Counted from the first letter of the stretch, positions 149 through 12,935 are shown. The stretch: 35,083 bases of DNA from Alphaproteobacteria bacterium (GCA_045605805.1 JAZUQR010000022.1:1-35083); one strand, 5' to 3'. Made by a program: numbers and translations. Notes: generated by a model from the sequence alone, not told the origin.

Positions 149-784
149 CTATTGACTGACCCAAACCACCCGAGCCATCCAACAAATATCTTCGGGCAAT
201 AAAGAAATCATGGCGTGTTCGGTGTTTAAGGATTTTAATTCAATTTTTTTGGCACTTTTATGGTGCAATTCCTTTACCATTACCTCACCTGTGGTCAATT
301 TGACAACGATTCGGTCGTTGATACGCACTTCCGAATCAGGTTGCACAATCAATTTATCGCCTTCACGATACACAGGTTCCATGCTGTTGCCTGAAACTTC
401 CAAAGCATAAACCCCTTTTGCCACTTGGATGGGAAACTCAATACCATCCCATTCGTCCAAAGATAAAGGATGCCCGTCTGAATCAAAAAAGCCTTCACGG
501 CCTGCCTTGGCCAGCCCTAATAAGGGGATAGTATATTTTGGGGCAGGAATAGATTGTCCGGCAAACTCCATAAACTCAAAAACAGTGGTGTTTGTGGCTT
601 TTAACACCTTATTCATACTTTCTGTGGAAGGCCACCTTTTGCGCCCATCAGCCCCGATTCGTTTTGATTTGTTAAAGCTGGTAGGGTCTAAACCGGCTTT
701 TTGGGCCAAGGCCGATAAAGAAAGTCCTTTTGCATGTGCAAGATTTTCTAAACCAACCCAGATTTCTTGATATGACAGATGCAT
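149..784 (-). CDS. LexA/CI-like transcriptional repressor (N-terminal HTH + S24 autopeptidase domain)
   Basis: N-terminal HTH-like segment (GLSLSALAQKAGLDPTSFNKSKR...RWPSTES), candidate Ala-Gly cleavage site (LAKAGREG), S24 catalytic Ser (SGNSMEP) and Lys (VMVKEL). ATG at 784 follows GAAAGGA, so it is preferred over the GTG at 799. Confidence 0.9.
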   Translation of the reverse strand: MHLSYQEIWVGLENLAHAKGLSLSALAQKAGLDPTSFNKSKRIGADGRKRWPSTESMNKVLKATNTTVFEFMEFAGQSIPAPKYTIPLLGLAKAGREGFFDSDGHPLSLDEWDGIEFPIQVAKGVYALEVSGNSMEPVYREGDKLIVQPDSEVRINDRIVVKLTTGEVMVKELHHKSAKKIELKSLNTEHAMISLLPEDICWMARVVWVSQ

Positions 785-816
785 GATAAATCCTTTCACT
801 TTTTAGTTGTGGCTAT

Positions 817-845
817 TTTATAGCATATTATTTTTGAAATGTCAA
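817..845 (-). promoter_or_regulatory. sigma70-type promoter of the repressor gene
   Basis: Minus strand reads TTGACA (845-840), 17 nt, TATAAA (822-817), with an extended -10 TG. Confidence 0.75.
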
Positions 846-861
846 TAGGATTTTTTTCTTA
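846..861. promoter_or_regulatory. putative repressor operator 1 (TAGGA-N6-TCTTA)
   Basis: Imperfect palindrome between two back-to-back -35 hexamers; a matching palindrome occurs at 1695-1710. Confidence 0.55.
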
Positions 862-869
862 TTTTACTC

Positions 870-898
870 TTGACAAAACATAAAAAATGAATTATGTT
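870..898 (+). promoter_or_regulatory. sigma70-type promoter of the 938-1712 operon
   Basis: TTGACA (870-875), 17 nt, TATGTT (893-898). Confidence 0.7.
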
Positions 899-910
899 CT
901 GGTTTTGTTC
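896..910 (+). promoter_or_regulatory. alphaproteobacterial LexA (SOS) box GTTC-N7-GTTC
   Basis: GTTC tggtttt GTTC is an exact match to the known alphaproteobacterial LexA direct repeat and overlaps the -10 element and expected start site. Confidence 0.75.
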
Positions 911-937
911 TCATATTTTTAAGGAAAGGGGGTAAAA

Positions 938-1294
938 ATGAGGAATAAATACCTATCATTTGAAGAAGGTCGGGAAGTATTGACATTTAATTCGGCCGAA
1001 GAAGCATGGTTTTGGTATTGTTTATGTGAACAAATGGAACGGCATAAAGGAAAAAAATCTGCTTCGTCTGTTGTGCGTCCGTGTGAGGCTTCGGATATCG
1101 TTATTGCGGTTAAACGATTGGCTCAAACAGGGCAATTAAAAGCCAAACATATCAAGGTGTTGTCTAAATACGGTTTTTGTCAAGTGCCGCCTCATCCTCA
1201 TTTTGGGGATAGTCTAAAAATTTGCGAATTGTGGAAAGAAGCCTTGGGCTTTTTGGGGGATATTTTGAAGAAAAAGGGAATTGTGACAGCATAA
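938..1294 (+). CDS. hypothetical protein, candidate activator/antiterminator of the virion operon
   Basis: 118 aa with a good RBS (AAGGAAAGGGGG); motifs FNSAEEAWFW, RPCE and LWKEAL...LKKKGIV. Function is inferred from context only. Confidence 0.6.
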   Translation: MRNKYLSFEEGREVLTFNSAEEAWFWYCLCEQMERHKGKKSASSVVRPCEASDIVIAVKRLAQTGQLKAKHIKVLSKYGFCQVPPHPHFGDSLKICELWKEALGFLGDILKKKGIVTA

Positions 1295-1313
1295 AAAAAA
1301 CAAAGGAAATCAA

Positions 1314-1712
1314 ATGATTAAAAGTTTTTTATCCGTAGGTTATCGGCCAGCATTTGCTTATGTCGCTTTTGGTGGAGAAGTTTCGCATTGGTGGACAAAG
1401 TTTTTGAAAAAAGGCTTTTACCATTGTTTTCTAATTTTTGGAAACGGGCGAGAATGGTATATCATTGATCCGTTGATTCATTTTACGGATTTGATAATTG
1501 TAAAAACACAAAATATAGAACATTTTTTCAAGGAAAAAGGCTATATTTTAGTGCGGACAACGCCCACTGTTCCCAATAAAATAAAACTGAGTTTGCGCCC
1601 CTGCACATGTGTGGAAACAGTGCGCCGTTTTTTGGGGGTTCAAGACAAAAAAATATGGACACCGTATCAACTTTTTTGCTTTTTAATGAAAAAAAAGGAA
1701 AATAATCCTTGA
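1314..1712 (+). CDS. putative circularly permuted papain-like (NlpC/P60-type) protein
   Basis: His motif (GFYHCFL) precedes a Cys motif (CTCVETVRRFLG) and a terminal TPYQL, the order seen in permuted papain folds; RBS AAAGGA. Confidence 0.5.
   Translation: MIKSFLSVGYRPAFAYVAFGGEVSHWWTKFLKKGFYHCFLIFGNGREWYIIDPLIHFTDLIIVKTQNIEHFFKEKGYILVRTTPTVPNKIKLSLRPCTCVETVRRFLGVQDKKIWTPYQLFCFLMKKKENNP
1695..1710. promoter_or_regulatory. putative repressor operator 2 (AAGGA-N6-TCCTT)
   Basis: Palindrome with perfect 5-bp arms, overlapping the first two bases of the -35 hexamer at 1709. Confidence 0.6.
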
Positions 1713-1737
1713 CATTTTCAAAAAAATATGCTATACT
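1709..1737 (+). promoter_or_regulatory. near-consensus sigma70 promoter upstream of the virion operon
   Basis: TTGACA (1709-1714), 17 nt, TATACT (1732-1737), with an extended -10 TG. Confidence 0.8.
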
Positions 1738-1775
1738 GTGTTCCAGTTAAAGGGGATAAGTGTATCCGATAACAA

Positions 1776-1805
1776 AAAACCACTCTCTGTGTGAGGGTGG
1801 TTTTT
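1776..1805 (+). terminator. intrinsic terminator in the leader of the portal gene
   Basis: AAAAACCACTCTC-TGTGT-GAGGGTGGTTTTT hairpin (one G-U pair) with a T run; it ends 26 nt before the portal ATG. Confidence 0.75.
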
Positions 1806-1831
1806 CTATTTACAATTGAAAGGGAGACAAA

Positions 1832-3325
1832 ATGACAGACATAACACTGTTATATAATACATATAAAAAAGCCTTAAATGAAAGAAGTTTTTGGGAAAGC
1901 ACATGGCAAGAATGCTATGAATATGCATTTCCGCAACACGAATCGGTGTTTTCAAATGTGACCAGCAAAACGAATCGCTTGTTTGACGGCACAGCACCAG
2001 ATGCGGTTGATCAGTTAGGCGCAACCATGTTGTCACAATTGACACCACCATGGACAAAGTGGTTTTCTTTAACAGCCGGTTCAGACTTGACCCAAGAAGA
2101 ACAAGCCAAAGTTGCGCCTCTTTTAGAGCAAATCACCCAAAGCCTTCAAAATAATCTGGACAGAAGTAATTTTGCCATGGAAGTGCATCAATGTTATTTG
2201 GATTTAATCACAGCTGGCACAGCTTGTTTGATGTTTGAGGAAGCACCGTATGGCTGTGGTTCTGCATTTCATTTTACGGCTATACCCTTGTCGCAACTGT
2301 GTCTTGCAGAAGGACCAACCGGACGCTTAAATCATATTTTCCGAACAATTGATTTGGATTATGACAGCTTTGTGGAAAAGTTTCCTCTGGCTCATCTGAA
2401 CAAAGAAACAGAACAAAAAGCCAAAAAAGAAAAAGTTGTTTTGCAAGTTATAGAGTGTGTCCAGCCGAATGCACATGGCACCTATGATTACACAGCCTTT
2501 TTGAATCCTGATTGCCAACAAGTCACCAATAGCGGCGAGATGGTATGCTTAAAAGAAAGCACATACGAAACCTCACCGTTTATTGCATTCCGTTGGCTGA
2601 AAGCACCAGGGGAGGTGTATGGCCGTTCTCCTGTGATGAAAGCGTTGCCGGATATTAAAACGGCAAACAAGGTGGTAGAATTGATTTTGAAAAACGCCAC
2701 CATCGCTGTGACAGGAATCTGGTTGGCCGAAGATGACGGGGTGTTAAACCCTGCCAATATCCAGCTGACCCCTGGTGCGATTATTCCAAAAGCGGTTGGC
2801 TCAAAAGGCTTGACGGCTTTGGAATCCCCAGGCAAGTTTGATGTATCACAGTTGGTGATTAAAGATTTGCGTGAACATATTCGTCATGCCTTATTGGGTG
2901 ATAAGTTGGGGCAATTGGACAGCTCTGCCAAAATGACAGCCACCGAAGTGAAGGAACGCACAGACGATATGTTGCTTGTTTTGGGGGCCACCTATGGGCG
3001 ACTTCAAACAGAATTGTTGATGCCTTTAATTGAACGGGCAACGGCTTTGTTGCGCAAAAGGGGTGAAATCCCTGATTTGTTCATTGATGGGCGTTATTTG
3101 AAAATAACCTATCAATCTGGTCGCAGTGAAAAACAAGCCGAAAAAGAAGCCGCAAACGCTTTAACATGGTTGGGTGAAATTGCAAAATTGGGTGAAAATG
3201 CCTTGGCAGAAATTGATGTACCAGCCTTTGTCAAATGGTTGGGCGAAAAATTAAACATTCCAACGGCATTGTTCAAATCAAGCGAAACAAAAGCCCCATT
3301 CATTCCACTATCACAAACACTTTAA
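1832..3325 (+). CDS. phage portal / head-to-tail connector protein, T7 gp8-like podoviral type
   Basis: 497 aa with LFDGTA, LTPPWTKWF, RWLKAPGEVYGRSP, ALPDIK and MTATEV motifs typical of podoviral connectors. Confidence 0.92.
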   Translation: MTDITLLYNTYKKALNERSFWESTWQECYEYAFPQHESVFSNVTSKTNRLFDGTAPDAVDQLGATMLSQLTPPWTKWFSLTAGSDLTQEEQAKVAPLLEQITQSLQNNLDRSNFAMEVHQCYLDLITAGTACLMFEEAPYGCGSAFHFTAIPLSQLCLAEGPTGRLNHIFRTIDLDYDSFVEKFPLAHLNKETEQKAKKEKVVLQVIECVQPNAHGTYDYTAFLNPDCQQVTNSGEMVCLKESTYETSPFIAFRWLKAPGEVYGRSPVMKALPDIKTANKVVELILKNATIAVTGIWLAEDDGVLNPANIQLTPGAIIPKAVGSKGLTALESPGKFDVSQLVIKDLREHIRHALLGDKLGQLDSSAKMTATEVKERTDDMLLVLGATYGRLQTELLMPLIERATALLRKRGEIPDLFIDGRYLKITYQSGRSEKQAEKEAANALTWLGEIAKLGENALAEIDVPAFVKWLGEKLNIPTALFKSSETKAPFIPLSQTL

Positions 3326-3338
3326 CAAGGAGAAAAAA

Positions 3339-3998
3339 ATGACACAAGAAATTGAACAAAAAGAAAACACACCCAAAGTTCCAGAAAAGTTTTTGGATGA
3401 AAATGGTGAATTAAAAACCAATGAATTGTTAAAATCATACCTGACATTAGAAAAAAAGATGTCGGAACCAAAAGCAAGCGAAAAACAAATACCAAAATCA
3501 TCTGCCGATTATCAAATCACAATCAAAAATAATCTGATAGAGGCCGACCCACAGGTGAACGAAATACTGTTTCAACATGGATTCACAAACGAACAGGCCC
3601 AAGTGGTGTATGATTTGGCCACAGACCGTATTTTACCCATGATGCAGGCCATGATGGAAGATGTGGCGGCAGACCGTGAGTTGCAAAAGTTGGAAGAAGC
3701 CTTTGGAGGTTTGGAACAATTCAACACAATTGCCCGACAAATCTCGGCATGGGCAGAAAAAAATCTGTCTCCAGAAACATTCAACGCATTGGCAAAATCA
3801 AAAGACGGCATTATGACAATGTATCAAATGATGCAGACCAATTCGGAATCTCCCTTGATTCAAGGAAAAGGCCATTTGCCCGAAAAAGATGATGAAGCCA
3901 GTTTGAAAAAATTGATGCAAAATCCAAAGTACTGGCGAGACCAAGATCCGGAGTTGTTAAAACGAGTGGAAGCCGGATTCAAACGCCTGTACGGGTAA
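3339..3998 (+). CDS. capsid assembly scaffolding protein
   Basis: Lies between portal and capsid genes; VPEKF...LLKSYLTLEKK N-terminus and C-terminal PKYWRDQDP...V...FKRLYG as in podoviral scaffolds. Confidence 0.8.
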   Translation: MTQEIEQKENTPKVPEKFLDENGELKTNELLKSYLTLEKKMSEPKASEKQIPKSSADYQITIKNNLIEADPQVNEILFQHGFTNEQAQVVYDLATDRILPMMQAMMEDVAADRELQKLEEAFGGLEQFNTIARQISAWAEKNLSPETFNALAKSKDGIMTMYQMMQTNSESPLIQGKGHLPEKDDEASLKKLMQNPKYWRDQDPELLKRVEAGFKRLYG

Positions 3999-4001
3999 AA
4001 G

Positions 4002-4063
4002 TTTTATGGACAAGTTGAAAAACCCCATAAAAATCAAAAAAGGCGAAGGAAACTTCATAACCT
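4002..4063 (+). ncRNA. putative cis-regulatory two-hairpin RNA element in the capsid leader
   Basis: TTTTATGG-ACAA-GTT-GAAA-AAC-C-CCATAAAA and AGG-C-GAAG-GAAA-CTTC-ATAA-CCT; both have GAAA tetraloops and a C/AYAA internal loop. Confidence 0.5.
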
Positions 4064-4104
4064 GAAAAAACTAAAAAAAAACAAATATAACAGAAAGGAA
4101 AAAA

Positions 4105-4959
4105 ATGACAACAAATACAAAAGGCATTGATGCCTCTTTTATTAAACATTTTGAAGCAGAAGTTCATACCGCTTATCAACAACAAGGATCTAAATTGAAA
4201 AAAACAGTTCGTTTCAAAGACGGTATCACAGGGGCCAGCACCACTTTCCAAGTGATTGGCGCCCAAAGTGCCAACCAAAAAACGGGCCGCAACGAACAAT
4301 TGACACCGTCGTCTGTCACGCATGAACCAGTGGAATGTGTTTTGTCCGATTGGTATGCCGGCCAATGGGTGGATAAATTGGATGAATTGAAAGTTGGGCA
4401 TGATGAACGCAAAGTGTTGGCCACAGCGGGAGCCTATGCATTGGGTCGTAAAACAGACGAATTGATTATTGGGGCTTTATCGGCCGCTACTCAAGAAGCA
4501 GGCGATGCCACACAAGCATTGACAAAAGAACGCATCTTAAAGGCCTTCCAAATGCTGAACACAAATAATGTGCCAGATGATGGGGAACGCTATGCATTGG
4601 TTGGGCCTGCCCAATGGAATCAATTATTGAATTTGGAAGAGTTTTCCAATGCCAACTATGTGGGCGAAGAACATCCGTTTATCGCTGGCTCTGAATCCAG
4701 AAAATGGATGGGCATCAATTGGATTATGCATACAGGCTTGCCTGCGTCGGGAGCCGAGGCTGAGGATACAACAACCTGTTTCATCTATCATAAATCCGCA
4801 GTAGGATTGGCTGCTGGTCAGGAAATTGTCACCGACATCACATGGCATGGCGATTATGCAGCCCATTATGTGAATAATATGATGAGCCAAGGGGCATGTT
4901 TAATTGACAACCAAGGTGTTGTAAAAATGGTTTGCATCAACAACGAATCCAATGCTTAA
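4105..4959 (+). CDS. major capsid protein
   Basis: 284 aa; FIKHFEAEVHTAYQQQGSKL, DKLDELK, AYALGRKTDELII and C-terminal GACLIDNQGVV resemble podoviral capsid proteins; strong RBS and a downstream terminator. Confidence 0.88.
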   Translation: MTTNTKGIDASFIKHFEAEVHTAYQQQGSKLKKTVRFKDGITGASTTFQVIGAQSANQKTGRNEQLTPSSVTHEPVECVLSDWYAGQWVDKLDELKVGHDERKVLATAGAYALGRKTDELIIGALSAATQEAGDATQALTKERILKAFQMLNTNNVPDDGERYALVGPAQWNQLLNLEEFSNANYVGEEHPFIAGSESRKWMGINWIMHTGLPASGAEAEDTTTCFIYHKSAVGLAAGQEIVTDITWHGDYAAHYVNNMMSQGACLIDNQGVVKMVCINNESNA

Positions 4960-4970
4960 ACAAAAAAACG

Positions 4971-5006
4971 AAAAGGTCCTCCTGTAAAAACAGGGGGACT
5001 TTTTTT
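4971..5006 (+). terminator. intrinsic terminator after the capsid gene
   Basis: GTCCTCCTGT-AAAA-ACAGGGGGAC stem-loop followed by TTTTTTT. Confidence 0.85.
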
Positions 5007-5026
5007 ATAACAGAAAGGAAACCAAA

Positions 5027-5596
5027 ATGACTTATACAAAAATAGATTTATGCGCACGGGCATTGGTAAAATTGGGCGCAAGCGCAATTGCCTCGTTTGA
5101 GGAAGAAACAGCCGAAGCCCAAGTATGCGCCCAACTGTATGAACCAACTTTGGAAAGCCTTTTGGCCGCCTATCCATGGCGGTTTGCATTGAAAAAGACA
5201 ACTCTTGCCCGATTGATTGACAAACCCTCTGCTGATTATCAATACGCTTTTCAAGTACCAAACGATTGCGTGCGGGTATTATCGGCCGGAAATGGTTTCA
5301 AAAGTCAAGGGATTGATTATAAAATCGTTGGCAAGACCTTGCATACAAATGCAAACAAAGTAATCATTTCATACATTTCAAAATTGGATGAATCAAACTT
5401 TCCTGTGTTTTTCTGTAATGCATTGATTGCAAAATTGGCGGCAGAAATGTGTTTGCCTTTAACAGAAAGTACAAGCCGAACGGAATATATGTATAAACGA
5501 TTTGAAGAAGAATTGAAAACGGCAAAATTGACCGACAGTCAACAAGATATTGCGCCTTGTTTTCAAGATTTTTCGTTGATTGAGGTGCGCCAATGA
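5027..5596 (+). CDS. tail tubular protein A / head-tail adaptor (T7 gp11-like)
   Basis: 189 aa; IDLCARALVKLG, YPWRFA and YQYAFQVPNDCVRV motifs; position directly after the capsid gene. Confidence 0.8.
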   Translation: MTYTKIDLCARALVKLGASAIASFEEETAEAQVCAQLYEPTLESLLAAYPWRFALKKTTLARLIDKPSADYQYAFQVPNDCVRVLSAGNGFKSQGIDYKIVGKTLHTNANKVIISYISKLDESNFPVFFCNALIAKLAAEMCLPLTESTSRTEYMYKRFEEELKTAKLTDSQQDIAPCFQDFSLIEVRQ

Positions 5597-7518
5597 CAAA
5601 TATCTTTTCAAGTAAAACTAATTTTTCTGCGGGAGAAATCTCCTCGGATTTGTTGGGGCGAGTGGATTTAAGCGCATATGCCAACGGGGCCTGTTGTTTG
5701 AAAAATGTGTTTTTGGAACCCACAGGCGGCATTCATCGGCGCAGCGGTTTGCGCTATATTGCCAACACAGGGAAAACTGGTCGCTTGATTGCCTTTGAAC
5801 AAAAAGCAGAAGAACGCTTTTTGTTTGTTATTCAAGCAGGGGAAACAAAAATCTATCAACACGATATTTTGATGCAAACCCTTGAAACACCGTGGCAGGA
5901 AAATCAATTATCCCAACTCAATTGGTGTCAAGTGTCGGACGGCATTTTAATTGTTCATCCCAAAACAAAACCATATAAAATAAAATATCAAAATGAAAGA
6001 TGGGTATTGGAGGCATTTTCATTTTTAACCGAACAAGAATGTATCCGTCAACCCTATGTCCGTTTTTGTAAGGATGAAGTGACAATGTCGTCGTCGGGGT
6101 GTGACGGTGAAGTCACTCTTACAGCAAGCAGTGATGTTTTTGAACAAAGGCATATCAATGAACAATTCAAATTGGCCTCTGGCTATGTGCAAATCAAAAG
6201 CGTGGATAGCCCAACCCAAGCCAGAGCAATCGTGAAAAAGAAATTGCTGGAAGGCGAGAATATCGGTGCCAGCACAAAGTTGGAAGCAACCCGAAGTTGG
6301 GGAGAACCCGCTTTTTGTGAGGAAAAAGGATGGCCACAAACGGTGTGTACTTATCAATCCCGTTTGGTTTTTGGGGGAAGTCCGTCATTGCCCAGCACAT
6401 TGTGGTTCAGCCAAACCGGTGATGTGACAAACTTTGAACAAGGGTCTGGTTATGATGCGCAAGCCATAGAATTCAAAATCTTGTCAAACCAATCCGACCA
6501 TATTGTAGCCCTTTTTGCGAATCGACATTTGCAGGTTTTTACCACCAGTGCAGAATGGATGGTTTCGGGCGATCCTTTAACCCCAAGCGATATTCAGTTA
6601 AAGCGTCAAACCCAAGTTGGCAGCAGGTCGGATATCTTTGTGCCACCGTTAGGGATTGATGGGGCAACCATCTTTGCGGCCATCAATGGGCGTGAAATTC
6701 GTGAGTTTTTATTTTCGGATTTGGAAGGAATGTATCAAGCAACGGATATTTCTTTGTTGGCAAGGCATTTGATTCAAACCCCCATAGATATGGCCTATGA
6801 TAAATATGAACGCCAAGCCTATATTGTGATGCAAAATGGGGCGTTGGCGGTTCTAACAAGTTTTCGGTCAGAAAATCTTCAAAGTTGGACACAACAACAA
6901 ACAAAAGGGCGTTTTTTGTCCGTCGCAATTTTGGGACAGAGGGCCTATTTTCTTATCAATCGGGATGGGCAATATATACTGGAATGTTTTGATAAAAACC
7001 TGAATACAGACAGCGGTGTGCTTGCCTTGTTTGACACAGAGCAACAAGAAATATCAGGCTTGACACATCTGGAATCAAAACAGGTGGTTTTAACATCAGA
7101 CGGTGTGGTGCTGGATAAACAAACGGTTCAAAATGGCAAATGTGATTTAAGTATTGCCGGTAAGAAAATTGAAGTCGGCTTACCCTTTGAACATCAAGTG
7201 ACACCTCTGCCACCTGTTGCCGGTGCAAGCAACGGCAATGCGTTGGTGTCCAGTTGTCGTTTGGTGCGTCTTGTCTTGCGCTTGATAGATACACAATCGT
7301 TGGAAATAGACACTGGCGCAGGCATACATCAGGAATTGGTGCCAAAGTTGTTGGACTGCCACCTCAACAAGCCAATCCTAAGCCAAACAAAAGATGTTGT
7401 GTTAAGGTGTTTAGGATGGGTCAGAACACCAACCCAGCCTTTGTGGGAAATCAAAGGGTCAAATCCGCAACCGTTTCGGTTGGTTTCTTTAACAAGTGAT
7501 ATAAAATTAGGAGGTTAA
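5593..7518 (+). CDS. tail tubular protein B / nozzle (T7 gp12-like)
   Basis: 641 aa; N-terminal NFSAGEIS..L.GRVD, GGIHRRSG, GWP...YQSRLVFGG and WFSQTGD motifs of podoviral nozzle proteins; ATGA overlap with the adaptor gene. Confidence 0.82.
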   Translation: MTNIFSSKTNFSAGEISSDLLGRVDLSAYANGACCLKNVFLEPTGGIHRRSGLRYIANTGKTGRLIAFEQKAEERFLFVIQAGETKIYQHDILMQTLETPWQENQLSQLNWCQVSDGILIVHPKTKPYKIKYQNERWVLEAFSFLTEQECIRQPYVRFCKDEVTMSSSGCDGEVTLTASSDVFEQRHINEQFKLASGYVQIKSVDSPTQARAIVKKKLLEGENIGASTKLEATRSWGEPAFCEEKGWPQTVCTYQSRLVFGGSPSLPSTLWFSQTGDVTNFEQGSGYDAQAIEFKILSNQSDHIVALFANRHLQVFTTSAEWMVSGDPLTPSDIQLKRQTQVGSRSDIFVPPLGIDGATIFAAINGREIREFLFSDLEGMYQATDISLLARHLIQTPIDMAYDKYERQAYIVMQNGALAVLTSFRSENLQSWTQQQTKGRFLSVAILGQRAYFLINRDGQYILECFDKNLNTDSGVLALFDTEQQEISGLTHLESKQVVLTSDGVVLDKQTVQNGKCDLSIAGKKIEVGLPFEHQVTPLPPVAGASNGNALVSSCRLVRLVLRLIDTQSLEIDTGAGIHQELVPKLLDCHLNKPILSQTKDVVLRCLGWVRTPTQPLWEIKGSNPQPFRLVSLTSDIKLGG

Positions 7519-7519
7519 A

Positions 7520-8014
7520 ATGGGCGCAACAACAGCCGCAGTTGTGACAGTTGCAGCCGTTTTGGGGTCAGCTTATTTTCAGCATGAACAAATTCAAGCA
7601 GAAAAAAAAGCCACGAAACGAGCAAATGCATTGGCACACGAACAAAATAAAATAGAACAGGAAAATCAACAGGCAATTTTGCAAGAAGAATTGCGTAAAA
7701 ATAGAAATCTTTTGGCTCAGCAACAATCAGCCTATAAAGCTAAATTGGGAGCCAGCGGACTCAGCACCACATCCGGTTCAGGTCAAGTGGTTTTGGATAC
7801 CATGCAAAAAGAAGCGGATATGGAAGAAAAATACTTAAAACAGCAAAATGATTATACATTGAAGCGGTTAAACACAAACCTGAAACAAACAAATAACAGA
7901 AATTTGCTGAATTTAGAAAAGTTGAAATTGAATACGCAAGGAAATCTGTTTAATGCCACAGTACAATCCATCAAAACCGGTGCAGGCAGCAATCAATCTG
8001 CTCAGATAAAATAA
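7520..8014 (+). CDS. putative small internal virion (ejection) protein
   Basis: Hydrophobic Ala/Val N-terminus, Q-rich helical region and GASG...SGS motif; position after the nozzle as for T7 gp14-like proteins. Confidence 0.55.
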   Translation: MGATTAAVVTVAAVLGSAYFQHEQIQAEKKATKRANALAHEQNKIEQENQQAILQEELRKNRNLLAQQQSAYKAKLGASGLSTTSGSGQVVLDTMQKEADMEEKYLKQQNDYTLKRLNTNLKQTNNRNLLNLEKLKLNTQGNLFNATVQSIKTGAGSNQSAQIK

Positions 8015-8024
8015 AGGAGAAAAA

Positions 8025-8306
8025 ATGCCCGATAAAGAAAATAATTTATCCGAGGCATGGTCTGATGATTTAGAAAGTGCGCTGAACGATTACCATGCGT
8101 TTCGTACGCAAGAAACACCGTTGGAAGCCAAAGATTTTACCGCCTATCATAACGCCTGTAAAGCCGTTTTGGCCCACATTTTAATGATAAAAAAAATGAT
8201 GAACCCAATGACCCAGCAAAATCCTGAAACGGATTTTTTGAATTTATTGGAACAAGCACGAAAGGCAAACCATGAAGAAAATGATGAAAACGATTCCTTT
8301 GATTGA
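8025..8306 (+). CDS. hypothetical protein, candidate terminase small subunit
   Basis: 93 aa, helical-looking, RBS AAGGAG, overlaps the start of the large terminase; assigned by position only. Confidence 0.5.
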   Translation: MPDKENNLSEAWSDDLESALNDYHAFRTQETPLEAKDFTAYHNACKAVLAHILMIKKMMNPMTQQNPETDFLNLLEQARKANHEENDENDSFD

Positions 8307-9699
8307 TTTTGTCTGGATTTGGAATCATCAACTGAATCTGAATCTGCCTCGTCATCACAAAGCCATTTGTCGTTTTTTGGAACGCATTTGGAACCATGAT
8401 AAACGGGGATTGTTGATGGCGTTTCGGGCTTGTGGTAAATCCACATTGGTGGGACTTTTTTGTGTATGGTTGTTGCGCCATAATCCGGAATTACAGATTT
8501 TGATTGTGTCGGCTGATCATTCGTTGGCAAAAAAAATGACACAACATATCAAACGGATTGTGGAATTGCATCCGTTGTGTAAAGATATGAAACCATTGCA
8601 TCCGGAAGAATGGGCATCTGATTGTCTGTCGGTTCAAAGGCAAAGCACGGGCCGTGATCCGTCTGTATTAGCCCGAGGATTGAACGCCAATTTAACAGGC
8701 TGTCGGGCGGATGTGATTATTTGTGATGATGTGGAAGTGCCAAAAACATGTGACACAGGTCCAAAACGCCAAGAGCTGAAACGCAAATTGGAAGAACTGG
8801 AATATGTTTTAACACCCAAAGGGGCTTTAATCTATATCGGCACGCCTCATACACAAGATACTCTGTATAATACGCAGGATGGATTTTTGAAAAATTGGCC
8901 ACTTTTACGCATTCCTATTTTGAATCAAAAAGGGGAATCTAATTGGCCGGAAAAATATCCTGTGGATAAAATTATGTTGATGAAAAGCCGAACGGGAAAA
9001 ACAAAGTTTCAAAGCCAAATGATGTTAAAAGCCGTCAAGCCAAACGAAGCCCGATTGGATGTCAGGCGTTTGCTGTTCTATACAGACGAGCTGAATTATC
9101 ACGAAGCCAACGATTCGGCCACCTTAAAAATCGGCAATATACCCATGGTATCTGTGTCGTGTTGGTGGGATCCGGCCTTTGGTTCGGCCAAAGGCGATCA
9201 CAGTGTGGTGGCCTGCGTTTTTTCTGATGCCAATGGTCATTATTATTTGCATCGTGTGAAAATGTTAAAAGTGCCACCACAAACCGAAGCTGCCGGCTAT
9301 CAGTGTCGGGAAGTGGTCAATTTTATTCGGGAAAATCATTTGCCGGCCATCCATTTGGAAACAAATGGGATTGGCAAGTTTTTGCCCGCCCTGTTGCGTC
9401 AGGAATTGAACCGAGCAAAATTGGGCTGTGCTGTGATAGAAGAAATTGCCCGTACACGCAAGCAAAACAGGATTTTATCTGCCTTTGAGGTGCCACTTAT
9501 GAATGGCGCATTATCTGTGCATACAAGCGTCAAAAAAACAACTTTTGTGGATGAATTACAGGATTTTAATCCCTTTGCCCCAAAAGGACATGACGATGTG
9601 CTGGATTCTGTGGCAGGCTGTTTGTTGGCCGAACCTGTTCGCTTGAAACGCAATGCCTTTGTGCGCTTAAATCGCCCCAAATGGCAAGGAAATTATTAA
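8272..9699 (+). CDS. terminase large subunit (T7 gp19-like)
   Basis: Walker A AFRACGKST, Walker B VIICDDVE, coupling motif IGTP, nuclease acidic residues in WDPA and HDDVLD. The start could be 8272, 8281 or 8284. Confidence 0.92.
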   Translation: MKKMMKTIPLIDFVWIWNHQLNLNLPRHHKAICRFLERIWNHDKRGLLMAFRACGKSTLVGLFCVWLLRHNPELQILIVSADHSLAKKMTQHIKRIVELHPLCKDMKPLHPEEWASDCLSVQRQSTGRDPSVLARGLNANLTGCRADVIICDDVEVPKTCDTGPKRQELKRKLEELEYVLTPKGALIYIGTPHTQDTLYNTQDGFLKNWPLLRIPILNQKGESNWPEKYPVDKIMLMKSRTGKTKFQSQMMLKAVKPNEARLDVRRLLFYTDELNYHEANDSATLKIGNIPMVSVSCWWDPAFGSAKGDHSVVACVFSDANGHYYLHRVKMLKVPPQTEAAGYQCREVVNFIRENHLPAIHLETNGIGKFLPALLRQELNRAKLGCAVIEEIARTRKQNRILSAFEVPLMNGALSVHTSVKKTTFVDELQDFNPFAPKGHDDVLDSVAGCLLAEPVRLKRNAFVRLNRPKWQGNY

Positions 9700-9718
9700 A
9701 AAAAGAAAGGATAAAACG

Positions 9719-10126
9719 ATGACAGAATTAGAGATTTTTGCAAAAACTGTTTTTGGTGAAGCCCGTGGCGAAAAATTGTCTGGCATGGAAGCGGTGGCTA
9801 ATGTCATCCTCAATCGTGTCAAACATGCCCAAAGAATTGGCAGCTATTGGTGGGGCAAAACAATTGAAGAAGTATGCTTGAAACCATTTCAATTTTCGTG
9901 TTGGAATAAAAATGATGTCAATTTTGCACTTTTACAACAAGATTTGAAAGACAATAAAGTGTATCAAATCTGTGAAAGAATTGCCAAACGGGCGTTAGCT
10001 GGCTTTTTGCCGGATAACACCAAAGGGGCCACGCATTACCATGCAGATTCAATAAATCCTTCGTGGGCAAGATGTGCCGTTCCATGCGCCCAAATTGGCC
10101 GTCATGTGTTTTATGCTTTGTATTGA
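9719..10126 (+). CDS. cell wall hydrolase, SleB/Hydrolase_2 family (putative endolysin)
   Basis: GEARGE (catalytic Glu), VANVILNRV, QFSCWN, GATHYHA and IGRHVFY. Confidence 0.9.
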   Translation: MTELEIFAKTVFGEARGEKLSGMEAVANVILNRVKHAQRIGSYWWGKTIEEVCLKPFQFSCWNKNDVNFALLQQDLKDNKVYQICERIAKRALAGFLPDNTKGATHYHADSINPSWARCAVPCAQIGRHVFYALY

Positions 10127-10137
10127 AAGGAAAAAAA

Positions 10138-10449
10138 ATGCCAAGTCAAAATCTTACAATGGAAACCGGCAAGTTGATGGCAACGGTGTCCAACCTACAA
10201 AATGAACTCGGCCATATCAAAAAAGAAATGCATACATTGAATAATCAAGTGATGAAAGTGCATGATGATTTGATTGGTTTTATGGGCACAGTTCAAACAA
10301 AAGGCAGTTGTGAACATATCCAACGGATTTTGAAATCAGACTATGTCCAACGCAGTGAATTGGCCCCCTTCAAAGCAATTTTGGGGGCTGTTTCTTTAAC
10401 AACGGTCACAGCCATCACTGTGGCCATCTTAAACCTTATTTTGAAATGA
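10138..10449 (+). CDS. coiled-coil protein with C-terminal transmembrane helix (putative lysis accessory protein)
   Basis: ATG 10138 follows GAAAGGA; heptad-like N-terminal half and hydrophobic C-terminus (ILGAVSLTTVTAITVAILNLIL). Confidence 0.55.
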   Translation: MPSQNLTMETGKLMATVSNLQNELGHIKKEMHTLNNQVMKVHDDLIGFMGTVQTKGSCEHIQRILKSDYVQRSELAPFKAILGAVSLTTVTAITVAILNLILK

Positions 10450-10646
10450 AAGGAAAGAAAATGATTCAATTTATTATGACTTATTTTAATGATATTTTGG
10501 GTGCCATTACATCCATTATTGCTGGGGCCAGTGCCTTATCAGCCATCACGCCAACAACAAAAGACGATACCGTTTTGAAAAAAGTGAAAAACTGTTTAGA
10601 TATAGTGGCCCTAAATATAGGCAATGCCAAAACGGCAACAGCCTAA
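10446..10646 (+). CDS. small holin-like membrane protein
   Basis: One hydrophobic helix followed by TPTTKDD..L.K...LDIVALN, a pattern seen in small phage membrane proteins; starts possible at 10446 and 10461. Confidence 0.55.
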   Translation: MKGKKMIQFIMTYFNDILGAITSIIAGASALSAITPTTKDDTVLKKVKNCLDIVALNIGNAKTATA

Positions 10647-11137
10647 ACAAGTGACCGGCGGCGGGCTTTTTTCGGGCCAAAAGTGTGCCAAGATTCTCCT
10701 TCATCAAGTAAAAGCACAACCCCGTCTGCCGGTTGTAATTTATACACAGGTTCGGATTGGGAAATATAAGAAATAAACTCGGTCAACCCTGGTAATTCGC
10801 CCACAATCATCACACAAAATAAAATGTCGTCCAGCTTATGAATCATCTCTAAAATCCGATAATCCGGTGCATCATATAACGAATCTTTGTACAGAATATC
10901 CGATTTTCCCAAAACTTCGTCCAACAAATCCAAAGTTTGATGCACATACAAAGTTGGCGAACATAAAATTAAATCAGGCATTAAAATGGGATTTTCTTTT
11001 AATTCTTCCAACAAAGTTAAAACATCGTTGATGCCCTTTTTGGAAAGTGGTCGTTTTAATTCATTCAAAACGGGTGCTGTTTCATCAGGCGACCCAGCCG
11101 CCACAACATAAAGAATCCTATTTTTCTGTTGATGCAT
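10643..11137 (-). CDS. SixA-like histidine phosphatase fold protein with substituted catalytic residues
   Basis: RPLSKKG, PDLILCSP...QT, LYDA and MIVG.P match SixA, but the RH motif reads AA and GHxP reads GELP. ATG 11137 has RBS AAGGGGAG. Confidence 0.65.
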   Translation of the reverse strand: MHQQKNRILYVVAAGSPDETAPVLNELKRPLSKKGINDVLTLLEELKENPILMPDLILCSPTLYVHQTLDLLDEVLGKSDILYKDSLYDAPDYRILEMIHKLDDILFCVMIVGELPGLTEFISYISQSEPVYKLQPADGVVLLLDEGESWHTFGPKKARRRSLV

Positions 11138-11194
11138 AAAATCTCCCCTTGTATTGTTCAAAAGATATAGGAAGATTTTGTCAAAATTGCAATC

Positions 11195-11452
11195 TTATTG
11201 AACGATGTGCGTGTTTTTTTGTGAATCCGCAAGCTGTTCCTGAGTCACCGCATTTATTGGCAACTCTTGCAAACGATTTTGTCCCGTAATAATCCGCCAA
11301 CTTTCAGAAAAGAAATAGGCTGTTTTCGTAATGCTTGTTTGCGGCTTGATACCCCAAATGGCCCACAGCAAAGTAAAACCAATTCCTGTCAACACGATGG
11401 TGTTGATAATAAGGTTCAAAGTAAACTTTATACACTTTAATAATTTTTCCAT
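11195..11452 (-). CDS. small hypothetical membrane protein
   Basis: 85 aa from ATG 11452 with one TM segment (LIINTIVLTGIGFTLLWAIWGI). Confidence 0.55.
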   Translation of the reverse strand: MEKLLKCIKFTLNLIINTIVLTGIGFTLLWAIWGIKPQTSITKTAYFFSESWRIITGQNRLQELPINAVTQEQLADSQKNTHIVQ

Positions 11453-11502
11453 TGAAAAAAACCTCTCTTTTATTATATACTTTTTAACAAAAGAGAAGAA
11501 AA

Positions 11503-12177
11503 ATGTCAAGCGAAGAAATAATTAAAATTGAAGAATATGAAGTGCATCTTGTCAAAAGCAAGCGGGCAAGGTCGGTTTTTTTGAAGCAAAACTTAAAAGG
11601 GCAAATTGTTTTAGTCTGTCCTACTCTGTGTCATAAACTGGTGGCCATTACCTTTGCTGAAACACAAATAGAATGGATAAAAGCTCATATTGAAAACGGG
11701 CCAAAAGAACACAGATTCCAACCCAATGATGAGGTGATGATATTGGGTAAAGTCTATACATTAAAAAGAGGTAAAAGAACAGAAGTTTTGAAAAATGAAT
11801 GGATGATATCGGGCGAAGAAAGGTTTTTTCACAGGCGGGTATGTTCGTTGGCGCAAAAGCAATTGCTCAGCCATATCCAAAACAAAGTAAAAGAATTGAC
11901 GCAAGTTTTGCAAGTGAAAGTGAAACGCATTACTTTGCGTAATACCTCATCCCGATGGGGCAGTTGTTCGTCCGAGAAAAATCTCAGTTTTTGCTGGAAA
12001 ATTGCCTTTGCGCCCATGGAAGTGATAGACTATCTTGTGGCGCATGAGGTGGCCCATCTGGTTCAAATGAACCACAGCCAAAAGTTTTGGAAATTGGTGG
12101 ATACATTGACAAATCATCGGGAATATGCCGAAAAATGGTTAAAGGAAAACGGCCGTTTCTTGCAAAGCATCCAATAA
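11503..12177 (+). CDS. YgjP/DUF45-like zinc metalloprotein (often annotated M48/SprT family)
   Basis: SRWGSCS, IDYLVAHEVAHL (HExxH) and MNHSQKFW. Confidence 0.88.
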   Translation: MSSEEIIKIEEYEVHLVKSKRARSVFLKQNLKGQIVLVCPTLCHKLVAITFAETQIEWIKAHIENGPKEHRFQPNDEVMILGKVYTLKRGKRTEVLKNEWMISGEERFFHRRVCSLAQKQLLSHIQNKVKELTQVLQVKVKRITLRNTSSRWGSCSSEKNLSFCWKIAFAPMEVIDYLVAHEVAHLVQMNHSQKFWKLVDTLTNHREYAEKWLKENGRFLQSIQ

Positions 12178-12251: not shown

Positions 12252-12935
12252 GTGCATATTTTGTTGATAGAAGATGATAAAGCAATGAACCAAACAATTT
12301 CCACTTTGTTAAAGCGTTCAGGGATGACGGTGGAATCTGCGTTGAAAGCCAAAGAGGGGTTGGAACTTCTTAAAATATATGAATATGACTTGATTATCTT
12401 GGACTTGATGTTGCCGGATATGACAGGGGCAGATGTCCTGCGCAGTGTGCGTGCCTTGAATATAGCCACCCCCGTTTTGGTGCTGTCTGCCATTGAATTG
12501 GCCCAAAAGAAAGTGGAATGTCTGGCCCTGGGCGCAGACGATTATGTGAATAAACCTTTTAATGGTGAAGAATTAATTGCTCGGGTCAATGCTATTGTGC
12601 GGCGCAGCAAGGGTCATGCCGAAGCGGTGGTCAAAGTTGGAAAAATGTCCATTGACCTGAATACAAAAGTCGTCACAGTGGCGGATAAAATCTTGCCTTT
12701 AACAGGAAAAGAATATGCGCTGATTGAATTGTTGGCGTTAAAAAAAGGTTCAACGGTAAGTAAAGAACAATTTTTGAATCATCTGTATAATGGCATGGAT
12801 GAACCGGAAGTAAAAATCATAGATGTGTTTTTCTGTAAAATAAGGTCAAAAATTAAAGAATTGTCTGATGGGGAAGATTATATCACAACCGTTTGGGGGC
12901 GGGGTTATATTCTTCAAGAATCTCCACTGAACTAA
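12252..12935 (+). CDS. ctrA: cell cycle response regulator CtrA
   Basis: Asp51 in YDLIILDLMLPD; AIVRRSKGHA, LTGKEY, FLNHLYNGMDEPEVKIIDVF and TVWGRGY are CtrA-specific. Confidence 0.92.
   Translation: MHILLIEDDKAMNQTISTLLKRSGMTVESALKAKEGLELLKIYEYDLIILDLMLPDMTGADVLRSVRALNIATPVLVLSAIELAQKKVECLALGADDYVNKPFNGEELIARVNAIVRRSKGHAEAVVKVGKMSIDLNTKVVTVADKILPLTGKEYALIELLALKKGSTVSKEQFLNHLYNGMDEPEVKIIDVFFCKIRSKIKELSDGEDYITTVWGRGYILQESPLN

Follow-up and report, generated by a model that had tools for sequence, protein, structure and literature searches.

A chromosomal T7-like virion cassette of a gut alphaproteobacterium as a candidate podovirus-type gene transfer agent

In this study, which was based on a single contig of a gut alphaproteobacterium (genome G000) and its comparison with relatives, we describe a 14-gene phage-derived cassette whose gene content and inheritance make it a strong candidate for a gene transfer agent (GTA) of a new kind. 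Our preferred reading, which we hold with moderate confidence, is that the cassette forms the principal locus of a T7-like short-tailed particle system that is fixed in the chromosome and inherited vertically, i.e., a podovirus-type viriform that resembles a GTA. Several of the features that define GTAs were found: a chromosomal, phage-derived cluster of structural and packaging genes that has no genes for replication, integration or excision, vertical descent under purifying selection and a distribution over several loci. Three features of the system are new, namely a fibre gene on another contig, a palindrome-bearing promoter common to the portal operon, the fibre gene and two MuF-domain effector genes, and leader terminators 3' of each of these promoters. 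A point against the GTA reading is that the element has its own CI-like repressor, as prophages do, unlike RcGTA with its control by host regulators. The original prediction had placed the cassette under host regulators, which was not borne out; nothing ties the neighbouring OmpR-type regulator to the cassette, and the S24 repressor is the element's own.

Gene content of the cassette

The window, i.e., the whole stretch of 35,083 nucleotides that was analysed, is the entire contig C22 of G000, and the cassette occupies its positions 149-10646, beginning 148 bases from the contig end at position 1. A contiguous virion cassette had been predicted, and Pfam and PHROG scans confirmed its contiguity and most of its labels. 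The gene of a CI/LexA-like S24 repressor on the minus strand (149-799; Peptidase_S24 PF00717, E 9e-21; phrog_4, E 5e-28) is followed, on the plus strand, by two small early genes that had no match in Pfam or PHROG, orf118 (938-1294) and orf132 (1314-1712). The genes behind them, all on the plus strand, encode a T7-type portal, the gp8-like head-to-tail connector (1832-3325; PF12236, E 3e-122), a T7-type, gp9-like scaffolding (capsid assembly) protein (3339-3998; PF05396, E 3e-11), the major capsid protein (4105-4959; PF19821, E 1e-69; phrog_3437), the gp11-like tail tubular protein A or adaptor (5027-5596; phrog_394, E 6e-53), the gp12-like tail tubular protein B or nozzle (5593-7518; phrog_376, E 2e-121), a T7 gp19-like TerL (8272-9699; phrog_38, E 2e-81; PF22530 at 26.5 bits, just under the 27-bit cut-off) and a SleB-type cell-wall hydrolase, or endolysin (9719-10126; PF07486 Hydrolase_2, E 2e-23; phrog_938). 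The remaining labels proved to be weaker. The small internal virion protein (7520-8014) is weakly gp14-like, at 19 bits to PF24072, below the 27-bit cut-off, and E 2e-4 to phrog_418. The putative TerS, orf93 (8025-8306), matches just phrog_31793, a PHROG of no assigned function (E 1.5e-9), and is possibly the small terminase subunit by its size and position. The two holin-like genes (10063-10449 and 10446-10646) each encode one hydrophobic segment according to hydropathy, the second also matching phrog_9685 (E 3e-14); they are probable lysis accessory or holin-like proteins, and in the relative L079 a gene in the small-membrane-protein position matches PF11351 (GTA_holin_3TM). The predicted preservation of catalytic motifs is true of TerL, in which GKST, CDDVE, GTPH, WDP and DD.LD, which cover the ATPase and the nuclease, are each at least 95% conserved among 64 homologues.

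Between gp12 and TerL, the cassette has only genes of 164 and 93 aa. No gp15/gp16 core/ejection proteins were found in the cassette, and the relatives add just a fibre gene between gp12 and TerL; a tail fibre gene is likewise absent from the cassette. Both absences had been overlooked in the original prediction. The co-opted nanocompartment that it offered as an alternative is at odds with the portal, terminase, tail and lysis genes and was rejected. A tailocin, which has a tail only and neither capsid nor terminase, was rejected as well, since the capsid, portal and TerL are all present and conserved.

Chromosomal setting and descent

No assembled DNA precedes position 1 in G000, and this side was read from relatives whose left flank extends over 8 kb, in which host genes lie directly beside the repressor gene. 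The stated absence of integrase and replication genes beside the cassette was not derivable from the window, which starts only 148 bases before the cassette, but it does hold through the relatives. The order from the repressor to gp12 was kept in all 15 fetched relatives, with the 14-gene cassette between host genes, and TerL and SleB came next in 14 of them, the fifteenth contig ending earlier. The flanking genes in relatives belong to the host and have homologues in other parts of G000; in the relatives G009 and G005, the repressor gene directly adjoins a SpoU methylase gene, and on a complete 2.1 Mb chromosome, lysK, GGDEF/EAL, PHB regulators and thiolase make up the left flank. A scan of 47 loci covered 137 ORFs to the left of the repressor gene; each of the 25 most frequent families among them was cellular, and none was an integrase or a polymerase. 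Att-like repeats beside the cassette did not exceed chance in any of 13 relatives. The six integrase-family genes of G000 are all on contigs other than C22, and its one family-A DNA polymerase is a 951-aa host gene (PolA). Phage RNA polymerase, DNA polymerase and primase-helicase were absent from the cassette and from the flanks of the relatives; the T7-type RNA polymerase profile PF00940 gave no match in a search whose positive control was silent too. Two checks that had been proposed, on a conserved gene order without replication genes and on flanking att sites, came out in favour of domestication. An Autographiviridae virus was rejected, given that there was no gp15/gp16, no replication genes of its own and no single-subunit RNA polymerase, the last by the same PF00940 search with its silent control.

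The neighbours of the cassette differ between species groups within the genus, which could reflect rearrangement or past mobility, and an extra 491-aa gene is found at the probable left junction in G000 compared with G009 and G005. These flanks also bear on the cargo. If processive filling of heads by the terminase began from a fixed pac-like site within or next to the locus, one chromosomal region would be favoured over random fragments, as in lateral transduction. Such packaging would suit an element that, having no integrase and no att repeats, cannot excise, and in related loci the TerS-sized orf93 is always immediately 5' of TerL, permuted gene order included; moreover, T7-type terminases normally work at specific sequences. 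However, no pac site was identified, and the variation of the flanking genes among species groups means that no fixed cargo is conserved. Contig depths, although a poor measure, were alike across the cassette and flanks in three DNA runs, and we consider this explanation unlikely.

Further analysis showed that the portal gene is present in all 20 other species of the genus, once per species and with 61-79% identity, and in 22 of 24 genomes of the family, while the capsid is 79-85% identical across the genus. In 20 of the 21 genus genomes, no on-contig cassette gene has an internal stop; in the exception, the low-quality genome G006 (59% complete), gp12 is interrupted by an internal stop and the portal gene contains a TGA. 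The cassette tree has 12 of 16 splits in common with the RpoB+PBP1A tree, the four conflicting splits being weakly supported, and the patristic distances of the two correlated with r=0.94, which was reached by none of 2000 permutations. The dN/dS of the 14 cassette genes was 0.02-0.27 overall, far below 1 in every case, with dS saturated in most genome pairs; in the unsaturated pair G003/G004, it was 0.00-0.13 for 13 genes and 0.27 for a 66-aa gene, compared with 0.03 for rpoB. Additionally, 18 of the 19 listed within-species variants of the capsid gene in other samples were at third codon positions. Within the genus, the cassette is inherited vertically with its host and is under purifying selection. 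The original prediction had named congruence with the species tree and dN/dS well below 1 as support, and patchy presence and pseudogenes in relatives as grounds against it; on all four, universal presence in the genus included, the findings align well with it. The cassette has relatives in at least 579 species genomes, cultured Magnetospirillum among them; beyond the genus, the portal tree groups only broadly by taxonomy.

This pattern bears on two further explanations. A helper-dependent phage satellite or mobile defective prophage with its own capsid, for which another phage would supply the missing functions, could also have a capsid and packaging module without replication genes and a CI-like repressor; G000 has prophage-like regions on contigs C12 and C16, and at least 505 relatives are found as viral contigs in IMG/VR. 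Known satellites are patchy and mobile, whereas this element is present as one copy in each of the 20 other species, with a tree that follows the host tree. It encodes its own tail, its fibre gene is unlinked among host genes, and no recurring integrase, att repeats or replication initiator lies alongside. We regard a satellite as quite improbable, and the PICI/cfPICI-like class, which combines integrase, att sites, replication initiator and patchiness, was rejected. An ordinary temperate T7-like phage, with its replication module on the unassembled DNA, or a decaying remnant might be suspected in a window that starts so close to the repressor gene. The relatives with 8 kb of left flank, where host genes stand in that place, and the purifying selection on all of the genes across a genus with saturated synonymous sites make this highly improbable, and a fixed, vertically inherited particle system is the reading that we carry forward.

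Control elements and unlinked genes

In the repressor, the N-terminal DNA-binding region is conserved, and the C-terminal part is a self-cleaving peptidase domain of the S24 type. Of 94 homologues, 82 retain Ser139 and 85 retain Lys176, by analogy with the S24 family presumably the catalytic residues, and 82 retain Ala99 and 84 Gly100, presumably the cleavage site. A second S24 gene of G000 (C21:10465-10806) is distinct from it. Positions 800-937 appear to form a divergent control region, in which a consensus scan and motif search placed a promoter-like site facing the repressor (845-820, minus strand), similar to the late promoter, and an early promoter-like site facing orf118 (870-898). The latter gene is found in 69 of 80 related loci with a dN/dS of 0.03-0.14; a PDB profile search was empty, and in the ESM Atlas there was a weak structural resemblance to proteins of the antiterminator Q and sigma region 4 types (TM 0.56). 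We infer that orf118 is a candidate late-gene activator or antiterminator. The second early gene, orf132, is found in 71 of the 80 loci with a dN/dS of 0.05-0.21, and its nearest ESM Atlas clusters are mostly viral, a papain-like amidase lead scoring only 0.80.

The late promoter and leader (1696-1831, plus strand) comprise a palindrome (1696-1709), a -35 element (1709-1714), an extended -10 element (1727-1737), 3' of it a conserved GTTAA motif (1744-1752), GTGTATCC (1760-1767) and a terminator hairpin (1780-1800) and its T-run. A hairpin with a T-run was found in 22 of 22 portal leaders, with differing stem sequences and dG of -8.4 to -18.1, and of 16 fibre loci, 14 have the palindrome together with the promoter and the hairpins. 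A terminator that separates the late genes from their promoter is a feature of Q-type antitermination. The fibre gene of G000 (C25:1429-2433) lies among host genes, away from the cassette contig; its product matches the N-domain of the relatives' in-cassette fibres (E 1.7e-48) and passes the PF03906 cut-off. This separation is found in 17 of the 21 genus genomes. The promoter motif occurs at six sites in G000 compared with 1.2 in shuffles, and four of the six are at the portal, fibre and MuF loci, so that unlinked loci such as the portal operon and the fibre gene may be co-regulated. The leader terminators behind each shared promoter suggest that the portal operon, fibre and MuF genes are under antitermination control.

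It is feasible that the element, which is probably damage-inducible, works as follows. DNA damage would cause self-cleavage of the S24 repressor, and orf118 and orf132 would then be expressed. Acting at the shared late promoter, orf118 would let RNA polymerase read through the terminators before the portal operon, the fibre and the MuF genes. Procapsids would form on the scaffold, TerL would fill the heads with whatever DNA is available, and the SleB-type hydrolase and the two small membrane proteins would lyse the producing cell. Because the element neither excises nor replicates, the packaged DNA would, within this scheme, have to be chromosomal. G000 has genes for ComEC and DprA, which are widespread among bacteria (10 of 14 controls).

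The two effector genes with a MuF domain, which targets proteins to the head, are a feature of this subclade (C2:583-1431 and C23:1794-2237); they lie singly among host genes and are tied to the cassette solely by the promoter and leader that they have in common with it. They are predicted to encode a peptidoglycan hydrolase and a polymorphic-toxin-like protein; full-length MuF proteins are encoded in the other prophage-like regions on C12 and C16. Their N-termini pass the Phage_Mu_F cut-off (36 and 51 bits against 29.6) in a match that covers only the last ~50 profile positions, and they have in common an N-domain of 52 aa with 75% identity, beyond which their C-termini are unrelated. The C23 gene has small membrane ORFs and an orphan C-terminal fragment 3' of it, as in toxin-immunity arrays. 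Known MuF-fused polymorphic toxins of temperate phages, as described in PMC5576092, likewise have an N-terminal Phage_Mu_F match, a C-terminal domain that varies and small ORFs downstream; the genes in G000 differ from them in the partial match and in standing alone. All of this, including the late control that they have in common with the portal operon, would suit a particle that mainly delivers effectors or toxins or kills competitors, with MuF-tagged proteins loaded into the head and injected into nearby cells and DNA only pressurising the head. The lack of gp15/gp16 also points that way, since another ejected wall-degrading protein would be needed. However, strong MuF matches were found in just four of the 21 genus genomes and the N-domain in none of 184 cassette-bearing loci at E<=1e-3, and genes this rare cannot account for the conservation of the cassette in the genus and beyond. 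Moreover, the C23 copy has an in-frame TGA, the profile match is short, and head loading is putative. Effector delivery as the main function therefore appears fairly unlikely, and a GTA-like particle is still preferred.

Comparison with known systems

The RcGTA-type GTAs are siphovirus-like, with an HK97-type portal, prohead protease and tape measure, are controlled by host regulators, are released by lysis and have fibres at separate loci. The element in G000 resembles them in that its head, tail and packaging genes are phage-derived, are clustered in the chromosome and have no genes for replication or integration with them, in its vertical descent under purifying selection, in having extra parts such as the fibre at separate loci and in its predicted lysis release. 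It differs in its T7-type portal, scaffold, capsid, gp11 and gp12 and its own S24 repressor; the DNA content of the RcGTA particle is established, whereas this element is known from its genes alone.

GTAs are described in PMC12946183 as several dispersed operons that cannot replicate. In CcGTA of Caulobacter, GafZ bypasses terminators, i.e., control is by antitermination (PMC11150451), and in BaGTA of Bartonella, the Q21-like antiterminator BrrG requires a -10-like element and binds close to the promoter (bioRxiv 10.1101/2024.11.20.624540). As far as these accounts go, the likeness is a promoter followed by a leader and a terminator to be bypassed, here in all of the portal leaders and with the conserved GTTAA after the -10 element. 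However, orf118 is unrelated in sequence to their regulators as far as tested, with a role that is predicted, and the structural genes are of other phage ancestry. FpGTA of the Gram-positive gut bacterium Faecalibacterium prausnitzii has two operons and a proposed podovirus-like morphology, and experiments indicate that it encapsidates host DNA; it was called the first GTA-like element of podovirus-like morphology (PMC12946183), and therefore this morphology alone would be no first for the element in G000. The two are likened by that description only, having a gut host and a podovirus-like particle, which is predicted for the element in G000, in common.

Compared with T7-like phages (Autographiviridae) and HTVC010P-type pelagiphages, the element has no DNA polymerase, primase-helicase or gp15/gp16, nor an RNA polymerase as far as a search without a positive control can tell, its fibre gene is unlinked and it is fixed in the chromosome. 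Its portal, scaffold, capsid, gp11, gp12, fibre N-domain and TerL are homologous to theirs and stand in T7 order, and the best match among complete phages is Pelagibacter phage EXVC031P, with 35% portal identity.

Gene content and chromosomal setting of the cassette

The 14-gene cassette at 149-10646 is probably a host-maintained, T7-like particle system that resembles a gene transfer agent (GTA); the original prediction had proposed a podovirus-type GTA. The genome that carries it, G000 (GCA_045605805.1), comprises 1.21 Mb in 31 contigs and is 98.85% complete, with the window representing the whole of contig C22. Pfam and PHROG scans identified a CI/LexA-like repressor with a full Peptidase_S24 domain on the minus strand (149-799), a T7 portal (1832-3325, E 3e-122), a T7 scaffold (3339-3998), a major capsid protein (4105-4959, E 1e-69), gp11-like (5027-5596) and gp12-like (5593-7518) tail proteins, a weakly gp14-like protein whose match falls under the Pfam cut-off (7520-8014), TerL (8272-9699) and a SleB-type hydrolase (9719-10126), and therefore the gene list that had been read from the sequence was correct. 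Two small genes between the repressor and the portal, orf118 (938-1294) and orf132 (1314-1712), had no family match in these scans, a 93-aa ORF that is TerS-like by its place in the cassette (8025-8306) matched a PHROG family without a known function, and two small proteins at the end (10063-10646) have one hydrophobic segment apiece according to their hydropathy. The ATPase and nuclease motifs of TerL were kept in 64 homologues. Among 94 homologues of the repressor, Ser139 was found in 82, Lys176 in 85, Ala99 in 82 and Gly100 in 84; these are the residues that we take, by analogy with the S24 family, to be catalytic (Ser139, Lys176) or to form the cleavage site (Ala99-Gly100). A particle that packages a single chromosomal region in a site-directed manner would have the same anatomy and differ in mechanism, and we regard it as improbable. 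The alternative of a co-opted nanocompartment was rejected because portal, terminase, tail and lysis genes are present. A T7 virion also requires a tail fibre and the gp15/gp16 core proteins, all of which are absent from the cassette.

The GC content of the cassette (0.37-0.45) is like that of the rest of the genome, and from 11.5 kb on the window holds cellular genes, among them those encoding a YgjP-like peptidase, an OmpR-type regulator, MoxR/DUF58, MiaB, FtsY, PBP1A and RF-2. Regulation by the host had also been suggested, but the OmpR-type gene (12252-12935) is a neighbour of the cassette in the closest species alone and was thus not counted as a part of the system. The cassette is separated from the YgjP-like gene by two minus-strand genes without an assigned family (10643-11509), which encode proteins of 172 aa and 104 aa, the latter with a hydrophobic segment; conservation of this pair at that place is confined to the closest species (G002, G005, G008 and G009). 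In a relative with a closed 2.1 Mb chromosome, the endolysin region is followed by a gene matching PF11351, "Holin of 3TMs, for gene-transfer release" (L079:20618-21169, E 4e-12), whose counterpart in the window was below the threshold.

The cassette starts 148 bases from the contig end, which makes the window itself uninformative about the left flank, and the possibility of an ordinary prophage that was cut by the contig end, or of a decaying remnant, was weighed using the relatives. We regard it as very unlikely. When 20 kb was fetched around each of 15 portal-bearing relatives, the ORFs in their flanks matched host genes that lie on other G000 contigs, and neither integrase nor replication genes were found beside the cassette, where the original prediction would have expected them in a prophage. 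In the complete 2.1 Mb chromosome, the cassette is bordered on the left by lysK and by genes for a GGDEF/EAL protein, PHB regulators and a thiolase. A scan of the three ORFs nearest to the repressor in 47 loci covered 137 of the 274 ORFs that were found in 52 loci; the 25 families matched by most of these 137 ORFs were all cellular, with no integrase, polymerase or primase among them, and a lone integrase is possible among the single-ORF families, which this list does not include. Direct repeats at the two cassette boundaries, another prophage trait that had been named, did not rise above shuffled controls in any of 13 relatives. All six integrase-family genes of G000 are on contigs other than C22, and its sole family-A polymerase is a 951-aa host-type gene. 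The T7-type RNA polymerase family PF00940 was unmatched in G000, but likewise in all 14 control genomes, and the result thus carries no information. A satellite that depends on a helper would share this anatomy, and we consider it quite improbable.

In G009 and G005, which are the closest relatives, the repressor is abutted by a homologue of the SpoU methylase encoded at C10:1601-2320 in G000, and therefore the left end of C22 probably joins the start of contig C10. At the place where the methylase gene directly adjoins the repressor in these two genomes, G000 has an extra gene (C10:56-1531), probably an insertion or a gene of a repeat family that broke the assembly at this junction; its 491-aa product is rich in cysteine, has a hydrophobic N-terminus like that of pilins and shows a short FGE-sulfatase-like match (E 9e-10).

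Conservation, descent and selection

Of 41 related genomes, 27 had the portal; among them were every one of the other 20 species in the genus and 22 of the family's 24 genomes, with a single match per genus genome at 61-79% identity. The cassette is thus not patchy but fixed across a whole genus of reduced-genome gut bacteria. The order from the repressor through orf118, orf132, portal, scaffold, capsid and gp11 to gp12 was the same in 15/15 fetched loci, and TerL and SleB came next in 14 of them, while the remaining contig stops before these genes. Across 25 genomes, each cassette gene was found wherever the contig extends far enough. The absence of pseudogenes, which the original prediction implied, held for all of these genomes except G006 (59% complete), whose gp12 is broken by an internal stop and whose portal gene contains a TGA; the other apparent stops were alignment ends only.

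A comparison of trees for 19 genomes, one based on portal, scaffold, capsid, gp11, gp12 and TerL and the other on RpoB and PBP1A, aligned well with the expected descent with the host: 12 of 16 splits were in common, and the four conflicting splits had support values of 18-87. Within the genus, the patristic distances of the cassette and the host correlated with r=0.94, a value that was reached by none of 2000 permutations, and the cassette evolved at about 1.4 times the rate of RpoB/PBP1A. The dN/dS ratios (Nei-Gojobori) were well below 1, as had been anticipated. For G003/G004, the only unsaturated pair (dS ~0.2), they were 0.00-0.13 for 13 genes and 0.27 for a 66-aa gene, compared with 0.03 for rpoB; for seven further pairs, in which dS was mostly saturated, the computable values were 0.01-0.29, with 0.04-0.06 for PBP1A. 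In the metagenomes of three other studies, 18 of the 19 listed variants of the capsid gene fell on third codon positions. An RNA-library run yielded short contigs on gp12, TerL and SleB as well as on adjoining host genes; because DNA may be present in RNA libraries, these are no proof of transcription, the uncovered parts of the cassette carry no meaning, and contig depth can neither rank genes nor reveal amplification.

Dispersed loci and the shared late control element

Relatives with larger genomes (M. molischianum, G033 and the closed chromosome) have the TerS-like gene separated from gp12 by a gene that encodes a T7 fibre N-domain. In G000, the profile of this domain matched exactly one ORF, C25:1429-2433 (E 1.7e-48), which clears the PF03906 cut-off and has a GNAT acetyltransferase, an inositol monophosphatase and a PfkB kinase as its neighbours. 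The fibre gene was found in 17 of 21 genus genomes, always apart from the cassette, and the four genomes missing it are 78-91% complete. Its product has a conserved N-terminus and a C-terminus of variable length. The system therefore occupies two or more separate loci.

Between orf132 and the portal lies a late control element that is kept across the genus and in the related genome G022, and consists, in order, of the palindrome AGGAAAATAATCCT, a -35 box TTGACA, an extended -10, a GTTAA motif, GTGTATCC and a hairpin with a T-run, which in the window is located 31 bases ahead of the portal start. When each portal leader was folded singly, the hairpin was present in 22/22, with a dG of -8.4 to -18.1 kcal/mol, and lay 57-63 bases downstream of the -10 element in the 21 genus genomes and 36 in G022. 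The many differing stem sequences signify that the structure is conserved and the sequence is not; RNAalifold on a plain MAFFT alignment of these leaders gave zero consensus pairs because hairpins of differing sequence and length were misaligned. Of 16 fibre loci with sufficient upstream sequence, 14 also had the palindrome and promoter ahead of the gene, followed by two hairpins in 11 and by one in three. In G000, an 18-base motif (up to three changes allowed) occurred six times, compared with 1.2 in shuffles, and four of these sites, at the portal, the fibre gene and one gene each on contigs C2 and C23, had the full promoter and leader. A fifth, degenerate copy with four changes in the palindrome/-35 motif (C26:39456-39486) has no obvious gene downstream on its strand and is about 6 kb from an integrase-family gene (C26:33008-33505).

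A terminator between the promoter and the genes suggests control by antitermination. We propose that orf118 would act as the antiterminator for the late leaders, since it is the first gene freed by the repressor and its product weakly resembles antiterminator Q and sigma region 4 proteins in structure; when 64 homologues of orf118 were combined into a profile, the PDB gave no significant match. Antitermination is described for CcGTA (PMC11150451) and for BaGTA, whose authors propose its generality for alphaproteobacterial GTAs (bioRxiv 10.1101/2024.11.20.624540). The cassette may add a third case to this emerging rule, and the shared element offers a sequence handle for locating more parts of the system.

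The C2 and C23 proteins are 75% identical over 52 N-terminal residues, and both clear the Phage_Mu_F (MuF) cut-off with matches limited to the last ~50 profile positions. In the C2 protein this N-terminus is followed by a lysozyme-like domain; the C-terminus of the C23 protein is unrelated and broken by an in-frame TGA, with small membrane ORFs and an orphan C-terminal fragment downstream, like a polymorphic toxin array. These genes are neighboured by host genes (Hsp70-like, Hsp20 and NUDIX). They may substitute for a lost wall-degrading ejection protein or encode injected toxins, and a particle for effector delivery or killing would have the anatomy described here and another purpose. Yet strong matches were limited to 4/21 genus genomes and a screen of 184 cassette-bearing loci did not detect the N-domain at E<=1e-3, so that the MuF genes cannot account for the conservation of the cassette; we consider this purpose unlikely, see no support for a physical linkage and treat the genes as a subclade-specific addition. 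Two full-length MuF (SPP1 gp7-like) proteins of ~480 aa with differing C-terminal extensions, C12:8375-9835 (+) and C16:4592-6028 (-), point to further prophage-like regions in G000. One contig of sequencing run X2 exits the window at 10464 (10446-10464), and from there its sequence is the same as the beginning of the C2 gene. It could come from a strain whose lysis module contains the MuF gene, or reflect only the ~20 bases that both places have in common around the start codon, and this short stretch makes the two indistinguishable.

Relation to known agents and range of the relatives

To our knowledge, all characterised alphaproteobacterial GTAs are siphovirus-like, and Alphaproteobacteria of the Rhodospirillales type are largely without RcGTA. 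The cassette departs from a textbook GTA in that it has its own damage-type repressor and its chromosomal neighbours vary among the species groups of the genus. ComEC and DprA are present in G000 and are too common in bacteria to weigh as evidence. A host-maintained T7-type viriform would represent an independent domestication event, bringing a new particle architecture to GTA biology and extending it to gut and rumen communities. A bolder version, which we consider improbable, is that an ancient domestication of a T7-like phage in Rhodospirillales-type Alphaproteobacteria founded a second independent alphaproteobacterial GTA lineage, whose gut form would have been reduced to ~10.5 kb plus satellite loci. 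In that form, MuF-tagged, head-loaded wall-degrading or toxic effectors would have taken the place of the lost gp15/gp16 ejection apparatus, and a single particle would deliver host DNA together with polymorphic effectors, which would couple gene transfer to kin discrimination. Public records label the cassette proteins generically, such as "phage capsid protein" or "hypothetical protein", and no description of the element was found in the literature outside supplementary files and subscription journals, where a prior mention is possible. In its available sections, the study of M. gryphiswaldense streamlining (PMC7860042) has seven predicted prophage regions and no description of this cassette. 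A podovirus-like precedent is the GTA-like element reported in Faecalibacterium (PMC12946183); new here are the T7 ancestry, the alphaproteobacterial range, the fibre gene at a separate locus and the regulon defined by the common promoter and terminators.

A scan with the portal profile, using one genome per species, gave at least 579 relatives, of which the best 80 belong to gut and rumen Alphaproteobacteria, Magnetospirillum, Paramagnetospirillum, Phaeospirillum, Telmatospirillum, Caenispirillum, Roseospira, Micavibrio and Candidatus Scatocola. The carriers include strains in culture from Magnetospirillum, Caenispirillum and Telmatospirillum, which makes the idea directly testable at the bench; M. 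molischianum DSM 120, M. fulvum and Caenispirillum salinarum AK4 are non-pathogenic examples of cultured carriers. Of 401 genomes drawn evenly from the class, 83 had a portal match at E<=1e-60. IMG/VR held at least 505 relatives, mostly fragments of 4-25 kb, and the portal of the nearest complete phage was only 35% identical. The module of repressor, orf118, orf132 and portal is kept in most of the best 80 loci, with orf118 in 69 of them. A permuted subgroup of ten loci (L086, L092-L094, L097, L108, L110, L111, L117 and L118), which includes Candidatus Scatocola, has the order repressor, orf118, orf132, TerS-like, TerL and SleB, then portal to gp12, and its repressor is only 27-36% identical to that of the window. 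Relatives with large genomes have 2-8 kb of additional genes inserted between scaffold and capsid (L067, L061, L064 and L071-L073); in M. molischianum, this insert consists of two minus-strand ORFs without a PHROG match (L067:12518-14028). The portal tree grouped broadly by taxonomy. Three cassette contigs filed under Lactobacillales (L053), Solirubrobacterales (L081) and Bacteroidota (L088) MAGs were nested in alphaproteobacterial portal clades and are probably mis-binned.
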